Shown here: in pieces, positions 15,448 to 22,545 of the stretch
How positions within the stretch are numbered: the stretch's first letter is position 1
How the letters are laid out: each line of letters begins with the position of its first letter
Virus record (IMG/VR): IMGVR_UViG_2778261065_000029
Location: 1-22,545 of that record
Source: a virus
Taxonomy: Duplodnaviria; Heunggongvirae; Uroviricota; Caudoviricetes
Reading direction: 5' to 3' (one strand)
DNA length: 22,545 nt
The notes under the pieces: model-generated
Seen by the model: only the letters and a program-made list of their open reading frames with translations
The model's database searches: none
What the model was told of the DNA's origin: nothing
Made by a program: the position numbers and the translations under genes

Positions 15448-15654
15448 ATGTGCATGGGTAGCTCACCATCAGTGCCTGCAACACCAGAAGTTCAGGCAGC
15501 ACCACAGGAGCAGGATGCCGCCGTTGTTGATGCCCGCGACGAAGAAACACGTCGCCGTCGCGCTGCTGCTGGTCGTAGTTCTACGCTGCTTACCGGTTCT
15601 CAGGGTGACACATCAACCGCTAATACCAGCGGTAAAACGCTGCTTGGTCAGTAA
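15448..15654 (+). CDS. Hypothetical small protein (68 aa), low-complexity, first gene of the head operon
   Basis: ATG preceded by GGAGTCATTGAT. Ala/Gln/Thr/Arg-rich and likely disordered (MCMGSSPSVPATPEVQAAPQEQD...). Confidence 0.45.
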   Translation: MCMGSSPSVPATPEVQAAPQEQDAAVVDARDEETRRRRAAAGRSSTLLTGSQGDTSTANTSGKTLLGQ

Positions 15655-15668
15655 CCGGAGTCATTGAA

Positions 15669-17348
15669 ATGGCGGAAACAACTAAAGAGCGATTGAACAA
15701 ACAGTTCGCACAACTTGAAAGCGAGCGTCAGTCGTTCGAGCCGCACTGGCGCGAGTTGAGTGATTACATCAACCCGCGTGGTTCCCGCTTTCTGACTTCT
15801 GAGGTCAACCGTAACGATCGACGCAATACACGCATTATTGATTCGACCGGGACTATGGCGGCGCGCACTCTCGCCAGCGGCATGATGTCAGGCATCACAA
15901 GCCCCGCGCGTCCGTGGTTTCGCCTGGCTACGCCAGATCCTGAAATGATGGATTATGGCCCTGTTAAGTTGTGGCTTGAGGCGGTGCAGAACCGCATGAA
16001 CGATATGTTCAATAAGTCGAATCTCTATCAGTCGCTGCCGCAGTTATACGGAAGCCTCGGCACATACAGCACTGGTGCAATGGCGGTACTGGAGGATGAC
16101 GATGACATCATTCGCACAATGCCATTCCCGATAGGCAGTTACTACCTGGCTAACTCACCTCGTGGCAGTGTGGACACCTGTTTTCGCAAGTTCTCTATGA
16201 CTGTTCGTCAGCTTGTTCAGGAGTTCGGGCTAAATAACGTCAGCGAATCCGTAAAAAGCATGTGGGAAAGCGGCACCTACGAGAAGTGGATTGAAGTGAT
16301 GCATTCGGTTTACCCGAACATTGACCGCGATACATCGAAGCTGGATAGCAAGAACAAGCCATTCAAATCGGTTTATTACGAGGTTGGCGGTGATAACGAC
16401 AAGTTGTTGCGTGAGTCAGGATTCGATGAGTTTCCAATTATGGCTCCGCGCTGGGAAGTTAACGGCGAAGATGTTTATGGATCATCATGCCCGGGTATGC
16501 TGGCGCTTGGACCTGTTAAGGCATTGCAGCTTCTCCAGAAGCGCAAGTCGCAGTTGATTGATAAAGCCACCAATCCGCCGATGATTGCTCCGACTTCCCT
16601 CAAGAATCAGCGCGCCTCCCTTCTTCCTGGCGACATCACGTATATCGATCAGATTACTGGTCAGGATGGTTTCAGGCCTGCTTATCTGGTTAACCCCAGT
16701 ACAGCAGATCTGGTGGCAGACATTCAGGACACTCGTCAAATCATTAACAGTGCCTACTTTGTCGATCTGTTCATGATGTTGCAGAACATCAATACCCGTT
16801 CGATGCCTGTTGAAGCGGTGATCGAAATGAAAGAAGAAAAACTTCTGATGTTGGGGCCGGTTCTGGAGCGTCTGAACGACGAATGTCTTAATCCTCTCAT
16901 TGACCGCGCTTTCTCGATGATGGTGCGTAAAAACATGCTGCCGCCCCCGCCTGACGCGATGGAAGGTATGCCCCTGAAGGTCGAATACATTTCCGTCATG
17001 GCTCAGGCGCAGAAGTCTATCGGCCTGTCCAGTCTGGCGTCTACGGTCAACTTCATTGGTCAACTTGCGCAAGCGAAACCAGAAGCTCTCGACAAACTCA
17101 ACGTTGATCAGGCAATCGATGCATTCGCTGATATGTCCGGAGTGTCTCCAACCGTCATTGTTCCGCAGGAACAGGTTGAGCAGGCTCGCCAGCAACGGGC
17201 ACAGCAACAACAGCAGCAACAAATGATGGAGATGGGGATGGCGGCGGCACAGGGTGCCAAGACGCTAAGCGAAGCTAAAACTTCGGATCCGAGTGTTTTG
17301 TCAGCTATGGCGAATGCAGTTAGTGGTCAGGGTGGGCAATCACAATGA
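15669..17348 (+). CDS. Portal (head-to-tail connector) protein, podovirus/T7 gp8-like
   Basis: 559-aa ORF downstream of the terminase module. Q-rich C-terminal tail (QARQQRAQQQQQQQMMEMGMAAAQGA) resembles the T7 gp8 C-terminus as recalled. Ribosome-binding site GGAGTCATTGAA. Confidence 0.75.
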   Translation: MAETTKERLNKQFAQLESERQSFEPHWRELSDYINPRGSRFLTSEVNRNDRRNTRIIDSTGTMAARTLASGMMSGITSPARPWFRLATPDPEMMDYGPVKLWLEAVQNRMNDMFNKSNLYQSLPQLYGSLGTYSTGAMAVLEDDDDIIRTMPFPIGSYYLANSPRGSVDTCFRKFSMTVRQLVQEFGLNNVSESVKSMWESGTYEKWIEVMHSVYPNIDRDTSKLDSKNKPFKSVYYEVGGDNDKLLRESGFDEFPIMAPRWEVNGEDVYGSSCPGMLALGPVKALQLLQKRKSQLIDKATNPPMIAPTSLKNQRASLLPGDITYIDQITGQDGFRPAYLVNPSTADLVADIQDTRQIINSAYFVDLFMMLQNINTRSMPVEAVIEMKEEKLLMLGPVLERLNDECLNPLIDRAFSMMVRKNMLPPPPDAMEGMPLKVEYISVMAQAQKSIGLSSLASTVNFIGQLAQAKPEALDKLNVDQAIDAFADMSGVSPTVIVPQEQVEQARQQRAQQQQQQQMMEMGMAAAQGAKTLSEAKTSDPSVLSAMANAVSGQGGQSQ

Positions 17349-20549: not shown

Positions 20550-21154
20550 TGGCCTCTGTAGTAGAGATCTGCAATCGTGCGCTGTCCAATATTGGCAATA
20601 GCCGCAGCATTAACAGCCTGACGGAAGCCAGTAAGGAAGCGGGGGAATGTTCGCTGCACTTTGAGGCCTGCCGTGATGCTGTGCTTTCTGATTTTGACTG
20701 GAACTTTGCTACCAAACGCGTGGCGCTTGCAGATACGAGCAATCCACCGCCTGACTGGGAATATGCGTATCAGTACCCGTCAGATTGTCTGCGCATTACT
20801 GAAATTATGCTTCCTGGTGTACGCAATCCAACAGCAGCAATGCGCGTTCAGTACGAAGTTGGTGCAGACACCGACGGAACAGGAAAGTTGATCTACACAG
20901 ACCAGCCGCAGGCATGGCTCAAGTATGTCTCTCGCGTTTCAGATGTGAACATGTTTGATGCCATTTTTATGGAGGCGTTGGCCTGGCGTCTTGCGGCAGC
21001 CATTAACATGGCGCTGACTGGGAATGCGGATCTCGGTACATTTGCTCTCAATATGTACAATCGCGTGATTCTTAGTGCTGGCTCGCATAGCCAGAATGAA
21101 TCACAGGAACCACAGCCACCGGTTGACGAGTTTACCATTGCGAGGTTGTCCTGA
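20549..21154 (+). CDS. Tail tubular protein A-like (T7 gp11-like); tentative
   Basis: 201-aa ORF. The N-terminal pattern (ICNRALSNIGNSRSINSLTE...DFDWNFA) is similar in size and pattern to the T7 gp11 N-terminus as recalled (remote, unverified). Followed directly by a large gp12-like ORF. Confidence 0.45.
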   Translation: MASVVEICNRALSNIGNSRSINSLTEASKEAGECSLHFEACRDAVLSDFDWNFATKRVALADTSNPPPDWEYAYQYPSDCLRITEIMLPGVRNPTAAMRVQYEVGADTDGTGKLIYTDQPQAWLKYVSRVSDVNMFDAIFMEALAWRLAAAINMALTGNADLGTFALNMYNRVILSAGSHSQNESQEPQPPVDEFTIARLS

Positions 21155-22545
21155 TGGCTATCAGTTGGATCCAGCCCAGCTTTGCCGGTGGTGAGATTGG
21201 ACCGTCGTTGTACGGTCGTATCGACATGGCGAAGTACCAGGTGGCATTGCGCAAGTGCGATAACTTTATCGTGCGGCAGTATGGCGGCGTTGAGAATCGA
21301 CCTGGTACGCGTTTTGTCGGTGCCGCCAAATACCCAAATCGGAAATGCCGCCTGATCCCGTTCCAGTTCTCGACGGTTCAGACCTACGCTCTGGAGTTCG
21401 GACACCAGTACATGCGCGTTATCAAAGATGGTGCGTTGGTGCTGAACAGCAGCAATGTTATTTATGAAATTGCCACGCCATATACTGAAGCCGATCTGTT
21501 CCGAATTAAATTCACGCAAAGCGCCGACGTGCTTACGCTGGTTCACCCGGCATACCCGCCGAAAGAGTTGCGCCGCTATGCGCATGATAACTGGCAACTG
21601 GTTGATGTGGTAACGAAGAACGGGCCATTTGAAGATATCAATATTGACGAGTCAGTGACGGTTTATGCCAGCGCCAGCACCGGGACAATTACGTTAACGG
21701 CAAGCGCCTCTATTTTTGGCGCGGAGCAGGTAGGCAAATTGTTCTATCTGGAACAGCCTGCAGTGGATTCTGTGCCGGTATGGGAAACCAGTAAGAGTAC
21801 GTCGATTGGCGATATTCGCCGTGCAGACAGTAACTACTATCGCGCCGTTACAGCAGGCAAAACAGGCACTTTGCGCCCTTCGCATACAGAAGGCACATCA
21901 TGGGATGGCTGGGGCGGATCCGGTGATGATGATACCGGCATTGAGTGGGAGTATCTGCACAGTGGTTTTGGCATTGCCCGTATCTCTGCTGCAAATGGAA
22001 CTACTGCAACTGCCGAGGTGATTTCCTATATCCCTTCGCAGGTCGTTGGCGAGGATAATGCCAGCTATAAATGGGCTAAATATGCCTGGAACAGTGTTAA
22101 TGGTTATCCTGGCACTGTTGTTTATTATCAACAACGTCTTTACTTCGCCGCATCGACTGCGTTCCCTCAGACTATCTGGGCCAGCCGTACTGGGGATTAT
22201 AAGGATTTTGGCAAAAGCAATCCTACGCAGGATGATGACAGAATTATCTACACCTATGCCGGGCGTCAGGTTAATGAGATCCGTCACCTGATTGATGTTG
22301 GTTCGCTGGTGGCGCTGACTTCCGGAGGTGAGTACGTCATCACCGGCGACCAGAACAAAGTGTTAACCCCATCATCATTTGCATTTAGCTCTCAGGGATC
22401 AAATGGCTCAAGCAACGTCCCACCAATTGCTGTGGCGAATATTGCTCTGTTCGTCCAGGAGAAAGGCAGTGTTGTCCGTGATCTGGCCTTGTATTATCCC
22501 TCCTGTGCAGAGAAAATCGGCCAGTTTTCTCTGCCTGCAGTCCGC
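21154..22545 (+). CDS. Tail tubular protein B-like (T7 gp12-like), 3'-truncated by the window; absent from the supplied ORF track
   Basis: Frame-1 ORF open from ATG 21154 (overlapping the upstream TGA as TGATG) to the window end: 464 codons without a stop, checked by manual translation (MAISWIQPSFAGGEIGPSLYGRIDMAKYQ...). The N-terminus loosely resembles T7 gp12 (MALISQSIKNLKGGISQQPDIL, from memory). Confidence 0.5.
   Translation, partial: MAISWIQPSFAGGEIGPSLYGRIDMAKYQVALRKCDNFIVRQYGGVENRPGTRFVGAAKYPNRKCRLIPFQFSTVQTYALEFGHQYMRVIKDGALVLNSSNVIYEIATPYTEADLFRIKFTQSADVLTLVHPAYPPKELRRYAHDNWQLVDVVTKNGPFEDINIDESVTVYASASTGTITLTASASIFGAEQVGKLFYLEQPAVDSVPVWETSKSTSIGDIRRADSNYYRAVTAGKTGTLRPSHTEGTSWDGWGGSGDDDTGIEWEYLHSGFGIARISAANGTTATAEVISYIPSQVVGEDNASYKWAKYAWNSVNGYPGTVVYYQQRLYFAASTAFPQTIWASRTGDYKDFGKSNPTQDDDRIIYTYAGRQVNEIRHLIDVGSLVALTSGGEYVITGDQNKVLTPSSFAFSSQGSNGSSNVPPIAVANIALFVQEKGSVVRDLALYYPSCAEKIGQFSLPAVR

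Follow-up and report, generated by a model that had tools for sequence, protein, structure and literature searches.

The head and tail-tube gene block of a phiV10-like Uetakevirus prophage, probably inactivated by IS621 in its tail nozzle gene

The late-gene region at positions 15448-22545 of the caudovirus record IMGVR_UViG_2778261065_000029 (the whole stretch of 22,545 nt that was analysed is termed the window here) carries ten successive open reading frames (ORFs) on the + strand, joined by short or overlapping junctions. It almost certainly makes up the head and tail-tube portion of the late operon in a phiV10/TL-2011b-type Uetakevirus prophage beside guaA, a temperate podophage related to epsilon15, with the insertion sequence IS621 in its tail nozzle gene. 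All ten ORFs match PHROG families with E values from 2e-36 to 9e-253 and are therefore not chance reading frames. Pfam families were found for five of them, those encoding the portal, the 98-amino-acid (aa) protein, the capsid protein and the 145-aa and 107/109-aa proteins, and in a scan of the block proteins against NCBIfam the capsid model was the sole match. A preliminary description of this DNA had read the block as a T7-type short-tailed virion module attached to a lambda-like temperate early region; the ORFs that it listed are all present where it placed them and on the + strand.

The block opens with a gp3-like ORF of 68 aa (15448-15654; phrog_831, 2.4e-36), to which no function is assigned; its product is 100% identical to phiV10p06 and 88% identical to epsilon15 gp3, and matches the C-terminus of BPP-1 Bbp22 weakly (3e-5). 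The portal gene (15669-17348, 559 aa; T7 gp8 family) overlaps that for a Bbp19-like protein of 98 aa (17345-17641; PF25181 Phage_Bbp19, 2.8e-17; phrog_528, 1.6e-49), which shares 66% identity with epsilon15 gp5 and 38% with Bbp19. The next ORF (17644-18339) encodes 231 aa from an ATG at 17644, or 233 aa from an alternative GTG at 17638, and its product is very probably the scaffolding protein, a call that draws on a predicted model and comparative genomics. Downstream lie the genes for the major capsid protein (18348-19340, 330 aa; in relatives the annotated start is the ATG at 18354), a Bbp16-type capsid cement or decoration protein (19392-19829, 145 aa; PF21190, 4.7e-47), a gp9-like protein (19840-20175, 111 aa, or 114 aa from a GTG at 19831; phrog_590, 4.1e-60) and a capsid ‘staple’ of the epsilon15 gp10 type (20226-20549, 107 aa, or 109 aa from a GTG at 20220; PF21628, 7e-52). 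The tail adaptor gene (20549-21154, 201 aa; tail tubular protein A, the T7 gp11 analogue) and the tail nozzle gene (21154-22489; tail tubular protein B, the T7 gp12 analogue) complete the series, the latter interrupted by the left end of IS621, a member of the IS110 family, which lies at 22490-22545 in the orientation of the nozzle gene and was recognized through a 58-nt identity search.

From 15448 to 22489, the DNA is 98.2-98.6% identical to that of the Escherichia phages vB_EcoP_ZX5 (98.6%), phiv142-3, vB_EcoP_PAS61, HEMP4, TL-2011b and phiV10. The whole window aligns with ZX5, phiv142-3, PAS61, HEMP4 and TL-2011b at 97-98% identity and 79-93% coverage (97.8% identity across 93% of the window for phiv142-3) and with phiV10 over the late region only (46% of the window), so the early region is partly mosaic relative to the named Uetakevirus phages, with coverage below 100%. 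Positions 1-22489 are 99.9% identical to a prophage in the complete genome of Escherichia coli MFDS1019527 (NZ_CP169309.1), which sits directly downstream of guaA; the window itself begins at the integrase gene, and the 3' end of guaA is the integration site described for ZX5 (PMC9782041). At least 80% of the window is present in 356 of 5,426 complete E. coli genomes (about 7%). In sequence records the genus of phiV10 and of Salmonella phage epsilon15, the type member, is Uetakevirus, and the gene content and order of phiV10, TL-2011b, phiv142-3, ZX5 and PAS61 equal those of the window, except that IS621 in the nozzle gene is found only in the window copy. Epsilon15 gp3-gp12 and the window proteins are one-to-one best matches in conserved order, the terminase genes lie upstream of the gp3-like ORF as the gp1-gp12 layout of epsilon15 requires, and every ORF of the block has a same-order orthologue in phiV10 and epsilon15 and, apart from the 114-aa ORF, in BPP-1 as well. 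By transmission electron microscopy, ZX5 has a head of 60 +/- 3 nm and a short tail of 15 nm (PMC9782041), in keeping with the short-tailed rather than long-tailed virion expected of this block. The combination of a short-tailed virion with a lambda-like early region is thus real, but it is already known and is the defining layout of an established genus. What had been put forward as a noteworthy mix is ordinary, being 97-99% identical to known Uetakevirus phages and present in those 356 genomes; the window is a common Uetakevirus prophage and brings no new pairing of virion and early region.

What is new in this otherwise known system is the IS621 junction. Similarity to all phage and E. coli genome matches ends at 22489, and the last ORF is interrupted there rather than merely cut off by the end of the window. 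The last 58 nt (22488-22545) are identical at 58 of 58 positions to sites in 1,678 E. coli genomes, with a median of 8 copies per genome, and in the copy examined an IS621 transposase gene is annotated about 140 nt downstream of the 58-nt site, pointing the same way. A CT core common to target and element occupies 22488-22489. With a slash marking the point of joining, the native IS621 junction reads ATCAGGCCT/TGTATTATCC and the window junction ATCTGGCCT/TGTATTATCC; intact phiV10 carries ATCTGGCCTAC at the insertion site. The natural target of IS621 is ATCAGGCCTAC, with a CT core and a tolerant position 4 (PMC11208160), and the target here, ATCTGGCCT/AC, differs from ATCAGGCCTAC at the tolerated position 4 only. 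Taken together, the CT core, the near-cognate target and the IS621 end indicate that IS621 inserted at a site other than a repetitive extragenic palindromic (REP) element. The junction is absent from the phage records searched and from the 5,426 complete E. coli genomes, and provides a natural example of IS621 inserted elsewhere than in a REP element, with a single tolerated mismatch to the canonical target, in an event that appears to have inactivated a prophage tail gene. The insertion cuts the nozzle ORF after codon 445 of 823. In T7, the gp12-type nozzle closes the portal channel; because the corresponding gene is cut here, infectious particles are improbable, and this copy of the prophage is probably unable to make them.

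The three proteins that invite comparison with T7 are the portal, adaptor and nozzle. The portal belongs to PF12236 (3.5e-187; T7 gp8, 2.8e-113) and is the sole protein of the block that shares a Pfam family with T7; it also matches the portal of Carin-1 (PDB 8ck0_A, 2.2e-179) and is 80% identical to epsilon15 gp4 and 44% identical to Bbp21. The virion of Carin-1, a short-tailed phage, has been solved by cryo-electron microscopy (PMC13317679), and the 8ck1 structure is taken as that of Carin-1 from its Foldseek description and the same paper. The 201-aa protein matches 8ck1_E, the Carin-1 ‘Connector Protein’, at 1.6e-26 in a sequence search, and its AlphaFold model (38 homologues; mean predicted local distance difference test score, pLDDT, 85.6) retrieved the same chain as the top Foldseek match in the PDB (2.7e-16, template modelling (TM) score 0.85), followed by the adaptors of LME-1, PhiM1 and P-SCSP1u. 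The model further matches T7 gp11 (7box_M, 5.3e-6, TM 0.61; also 6r21, 7ey7 and 8e4g) and the KP32 tail tubular protein A. The nozzle ORF matches 8ck1_A, the Carin-1 ‘Tail Nozzle’, at 2.2e-125 over residues 2-447, and residues 1-445 are 99.3% identical to phiV10p15. The window thus has counterparts of the Carin-1 chains (8CJZ/8CK0/8CK1) for portal, capsid protein, decoration protein, connector and nozzle. Directly shown are the identities of the genes and their synteny, the fold of the adaptor, the homology with solved virion chains and the short tails of near-identical phages.

Beyond the portal family, sequence comparisons with T7 itself gave no significant match. BLASTP of the ten window proteins against T7 gp7-gp13 gave nothing below E 0.7, and the scaffold, capsid, adaptor and nozzle proteins match none of T7’s Pfam families: the 201-aa protein does not match PF17212 (‘Tube’) at E<=0.01, and the nozzle has no Pfam match, the T7 gp12 family being PF25675. 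Alignments of family profiles with the single T7 proteins gp9-gp12 by hhalign were likewise not significant, the best being the nozzle at E 0.09 (window residues 321-384 against T7 350-411); the profiles were shallow, with an effective number of sequences (Neff) of 1.4-2.3, at which non-significance is no evidence of non-homology, and the aligned region agrees with a published match. That match links epsilon15 gp12 to T7 gp12 residues 354-556 by comparison of hidden Markov models (HMM-HMM, E<1e-10), and the same study linked the tubular tail A homologues likewise and identified downstream internal virion proteins as T7 homologues (Hardies et al., PMC4819975). In the epsilon15 record, gp11 is annotated as matching T7 tail tubular protein A by HHpred, and the deposited annotation of phage 65FD names the adaptor and nozzle genes as tail tubular proteins A and B. 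The gp11 and gp12 assignments, for which the preliminary description had asked confirmation, are therefore confirmed for role and, in the case of gp11, also for fold.

The term T7-like applies to the portal, adaptor and nozzle only, and the capsid protein is of the epsilon15/BPP-1 family. The proposed T7-type module accordingly survives in its portal family, adaptor fold, nozzle role and functional order (portal, scaffold, capsid, adaptor, nozzle, as in T7 gp8-gp12), but not in its capsid protein, which lies in PF20911, or its scaffold, which lies outside PF05396. T7 gp10 and gp9 belong to PF21703 (Gp10A-like) and PF05396, whereas the window capsid protein belongs to PF20911 only and the scaffold to neither. 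T7 also differs in having no cement, staple or Bbp19-like gene, and is a virulent phage with its own RNA polymerase, whereas the window phage is temperate.

The capsid protein matches PF20911 at 2.1e-149 and the NCBIfam equivalog NF045672 (MCP_gp7_epsi_15) at 9e-124, with 412.9 bits against a cut-off of 75. In the PDB it matches BPP-1 (3j4u_A, 9.5e-129), Carin-1 (8cjz_Y, 1.2e-87) and epsilon15 gp7 (3j40_A, 2e-85); Bbp17 is the closest solved relative at 62% identity, compared with 43% for epsilon15 gp7. Capsid proteins of the epsilon15/BPP-1 family adopt a rearranged ‘BPP’ topology of the HK97 fold (PMC3863775). The 145-aa protein matches the BPP-1 cementing protein (3j4u_H, 2.3e-24) and the Carin-1 capsid decoration protein (8cjz_B, 2.2e-21) and is 43% identical to Bbp16 and 36% to its epsilon15 homologue, gp8; the 111-aa ORF product is 39% identical to epsilon15 gp9. 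The 107-aa protein matches epsilon15 gp10 (3j40_N, 6.8e-21), which is also the sole PDB match of the gp10-type family profile, with 44% identity to gp10 and 52% (1e-19) to BPP-1 Bbp20, itself a gp10 homologue. The small ORFs reported as extra relative to T7 are thus real, but they are not peculiar to this element, being conserved head genes of the epsilon15/BPP-1 group. Protein identity to epsilon15 reaches 75% for gp6, 85% for gp11 and 88% for gp12. BPP-1 has a capsid protein, Bbp16-type cement, Bbp19-like protein, scaffold, adaptor and nozzle homologous to those of the window; its gp10-type gene (Bbp20), however, lies between the portal and Bbp19 genes, whereas that of the window follows the gp9-like gene. 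BPP-1 (Rauchvirus, Bordetella) and Carin-1 (Cobetia marina) differ from the window in host and early region, and BPP-1 has a diversity-generating retroelement that the window lacks.

Relative to epsilon15, the window carries a different allele of part of the head region. DNA identity is about 75% across the portal gene and the greater part of the scaffold gene, falls to about 50% from about 18283, in the last 55 nt or so of the scaffold gene, and rises again at about 20550-20613, where the adaptor gene begins. The interval (about 18283-20550) spans the scaffold C-terminal tail, capsid, gp8, gp9 and gp10, at 36-44% protein identity, and the 111-aa gp9-like ORF lies inside this unit of divergence. 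The last 12 or so scaffold residues and the capsid, Bbp16-like, gp9-like and gp10-like genes (18283-20550) have, on this pattern, been exchanged as a single cassette. Across IMG/VR loci (given L numbers here), these residues co-segregate with the capsid allele and not with the scaffold body. Locus L086, for example, has a scaffold body 57% identical to that of the window, a capsid protein 88% identical and the tail LYG, whereas L059, of epsilon15 type, has a scaffold body 81% identical to that of the window, a capsid protein only 43% identical and the tail AFYP. In L051, the scaffold body is 90% identical to that of L059 and 41-49% to those of L096, L102, L146 and L166, but the capsid protein is 87-91% identical to those of L096, L102 and L146 and 35% to that of L059, and the tail, SVAQRMYPNMNP, is of the L096/L102 type (RMYPNMNP). 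A C-terminal peptide that travels with the coat allele is expected of a coat-binding scaffold tail.

These observations bear on three alternative explanations. The prophage might be intact and inducible, with the terminal 56 nt an artefact of assembly or of the window’s limits. The sequence up to 22489 is indeed intact and has 99.9% identity with a prophage from a complete genome, and any second IS junction is hidden by the window end. The favoured reading is limited in that the window extends only 56 nt into IS621, so that what is left of the nozzle gene, like the genes for the distal tail, lies beyond view. However, the point of joining coincides exactly with a site that resembles an IS621 target and has the shared CT core, as bridge-RNA-guided insertion predicts (PMC11208160) and a random mis-join would not, and we regard an artefact as quite unlikely. 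A second alternative concerns the ancestry of the block, which might be a true T7-family (Autographiviridae) structural module newly recombined onto a lambdoid prophage backbone. In its favour, the genes come in an order like that of T7 gp8-gp12, and PF12236 contains both the window portal and T7 gp8; yet the block proteins lack BLASTP similarity to T7 gp8-gp12, none of them falls into the Pfam families of the T7 scaffold, capsid protein, gp11 or gp12, and the early and late parts of the window are collinear, at 97-99% identity, with many isolated phages and the 356 complete E. coli genomes. In addition, the longest ORF listed has 559 aa (the open nozzle ORF being unlisted), so that a T7-type RNA polymerase gene of about 880 aa is not among them, nor is one annotated in the closest complete prophage, although no dedicated search was run. 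The likelihood of a recent chimera is close to nil, and the collinearity and lack of T7 sequence similarity refute it for practical purposes.

With an IS621-interrupted Uetakevirus block as the favoured reading, the alternative that remains concerns one gene within it, namely whether the 231-aa protein is the prohead protease named in public annotation, with scaffolding supplied by something else. The protein belongs to phrog_458, labelled ‘protease’, carries the names ‘peptidase’ or ‘protease’ in RefSeq/NCBI, and has S209, E210, D211 and K156 invariant among 42 homologues; these labels weigh against the scaffold call, which itself comes from prediction and comparative genomics. However, the epsilon15 record indicates that the protease label stems from resemblance to an uncharacterised prophage gene called a ‘putative endoprotease’, there is no sequence match in Pfam, NCBIfam or the PDB, and H194 is not invariant among the homologues, in which the first 80 or so residues are variable and of low complexity and the remainder is conserved. 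The AlphaFold model has a disordered segment at residues 4-81, five helices at 99-213 and no strand, and Foldseek against the PDB gave no match at E<1, only helical noise at E>1.8. Furthermore, BPP-1 capsid proteins are uncleaved in virions (PMC3863775) and the capsid protein of the window can be aligned with that of BPP-1 over its full length, so a maturation protease is not needed; most tellingly, in all three recombinant combinations described above the C-terminal peptide follows the capsid allele. A protease is therefore improbable, and the 231-aa protein is very probably the scaffold, as the preliminary description had proposed and as the disordered, all-helical model and the tracking of capsid allele by tail peptide would have it; it would act through its C-terminal tail. 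For the gp6/Bbp18 family, the name ‘protease/peptidase’ is probably incorrect, and these proteins are better regarded as scaffolds with a C-terminal peptide that suits their capsid protein.

From these parts a plausible route of virion assembly can be drawn. The small and large terminases encoded upstream (12132-14278) would package DNA into procapsids built from a portal dodecamer, the BPP-1-type capsid protein and the 231-aa helical scaffold, whose C-terminal peptide would be matched to the capsid-protein allele. The shell would then be reinforced by the Bbp16-type cement, the gp10-type staple or both, after which the gp11-like adaptor ring would join the portal and the gp12-like nozzle would shut the channel and make the short tail tube. 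Core proteins and the tailspike would be supplied by genes further downstream, beyond the window. We infer the stoichiometry, the order of assembly and the identity of the small decorating protein.

The identity of the auxiliary capsid protein merits attention, since phages of this group have genes for a Bbp16-type as well as for a gp10-type protein and the literature takes one or the other as ‘the’ auxiliary protein. Both genes are present in the window, in BPP-1 (locus L006, 20751-21080 and 18228-18650) and in epsilon15 (locus L005, 6971-7363 and 7705-8040), and all examined genomes with a gp10-type gene also carry a Bbp16-type cement gene; locus L051 has no gp10-type gene. In the BPP-1 virion, Bbp16 occupies the two-fold position at 3.5 Å with side-chain density, and in the epsilon15 map gp10 was modelled at a similar two-fold position at 4.5 Å (PMC3863775, PMC5701804).

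The gp10-type staple and the scaffold of one and the same phage also share a short C-terminal peptide, both in the window (18300-18339 and 20510-20549) and in loci L005, L006, L095, L109, L118 and L146. The scaffold tail SAAEVLYGK of the window is paired with a gp10-type tail SAAETLYGNGGE (C-terminal SAAETLYG), and that of epsilon15, LISAFYPKK, with LKDAFYPDGEDD, so that both tails end in AFYP in epsilon15 and LYG in the window. The corresponding pairs are DARRLYAASNMNP and AAQRLYGASSMSA in BPP-1, DARSLYPNSDLK and DARSLYPNSTLI in L095, and AAASALYSNQQS and AAASMLYSGQAS in L118. Versions of the peptide that co-vary with capsid allele are LYG, AFYP, RLYxASxM, RSLYPNS and RMYPxMNP. Among 28 non-redundant loci, the two tails agree at 4.04 of 11 positions within a locus compared with 2.62 of 11 between loci, and none of 20,000 permutations reached 4.04, although this is no proper P value because locus relatedness was uncontrolled. 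No description of tail sharing by staple and scaffold was found in the accessible literature, and we regard it as a lead, not a result. One tentative and rather doubtful interpretation is that staple and scaffold share a capsid-protein pocket, the staple being loaded where or after the scaffold tail leaves, and that the Bbp16-type protein is the general cement of this capsid family, the last point following from the genomes that carry both genes and from L051, which has no gp10-type gene. If so, which protein occupies the two-fold site of epsilon15 would merit a re-check. The 98-aa Bbp19-like protein was also compared with the scaffold tail motif NEGQR..A.EL; its best E value, 0.005 in a 30-sequence database, leaves the relation unproven.

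Between the gp9-like and gp10-like genes lies a terminator-like hairpin on the + strand (20192-20213), read from the sequence as a GC-rich stem, aaggggc-ttcg-gcccctt, and then a T-rich stretch, tatt. The epsilon15 record annotates rho-independent terminators at the matching position, and T7 has its T-phi terminator in a resembling placement after gene 10. A simple promoter and terminator scan gave no excess over shuffled sequence and did not list this hairpin, which may, from its position and form, act as an attenuator upstream of the gp10-like, adaptor and nozzle genes.

Outside the block, the integrase, repressor switch and lambda P-type replication proposed for the early region were all located by domain matches. 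A tyrosine integrase is encoded at 1-1251 (PF00589, PF13356), a helix-turn-helix (HTH) repressor at 6145-6729 on the - strand, with a cro-like gene (6884-7114; phrog_35) divergent from it, an O-like initiator with HTH_36 and DnaT domains at 7481-8272 (phrog_1032), and a homologue of the lambda P helicase loader at 8254-9054 (PF06992, 1.5e-56); a RecT/PD-(D/E)XK recombination pair is also encoded. The repressor has an HTH_3 domain at residues 106-147 and, more weakly, a YdaS-like HTH at its N-terminus. It gave no match to an S24 peptidase domain, so it is not a LexA-like CI, and ZX5 has been described with a repressor plus an anti-repressor (PMC9782041). Together these features suggest that the switch may differ from lambda-style CI autocleavage, and that induction is probably anti-repressor-based rather than dependent on RecA-stimulated autocleavage. 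Of the terminases, the large subunit (12803-14278, 491 aa) matches phrog_2 (1.8e-52) but no Pfam family at E<=0.001 and no PDB sequence at E<=1; for the epsilon15 counterpart, the record gives Sf6 gp2 as an HHpred match. In the interval from the terminase genes to the portal gene, a tRNA-Arg with anticodon TCT was identified at 14944-15020 on the - strand by ARAGORN and by Rfam (72.2 bits), of which it is the only match across the window. It overlaps a + strand ORF at 14763-15014, the position of phiV10p04 (hypothetical protein), and this coding sequence is probably spurious.

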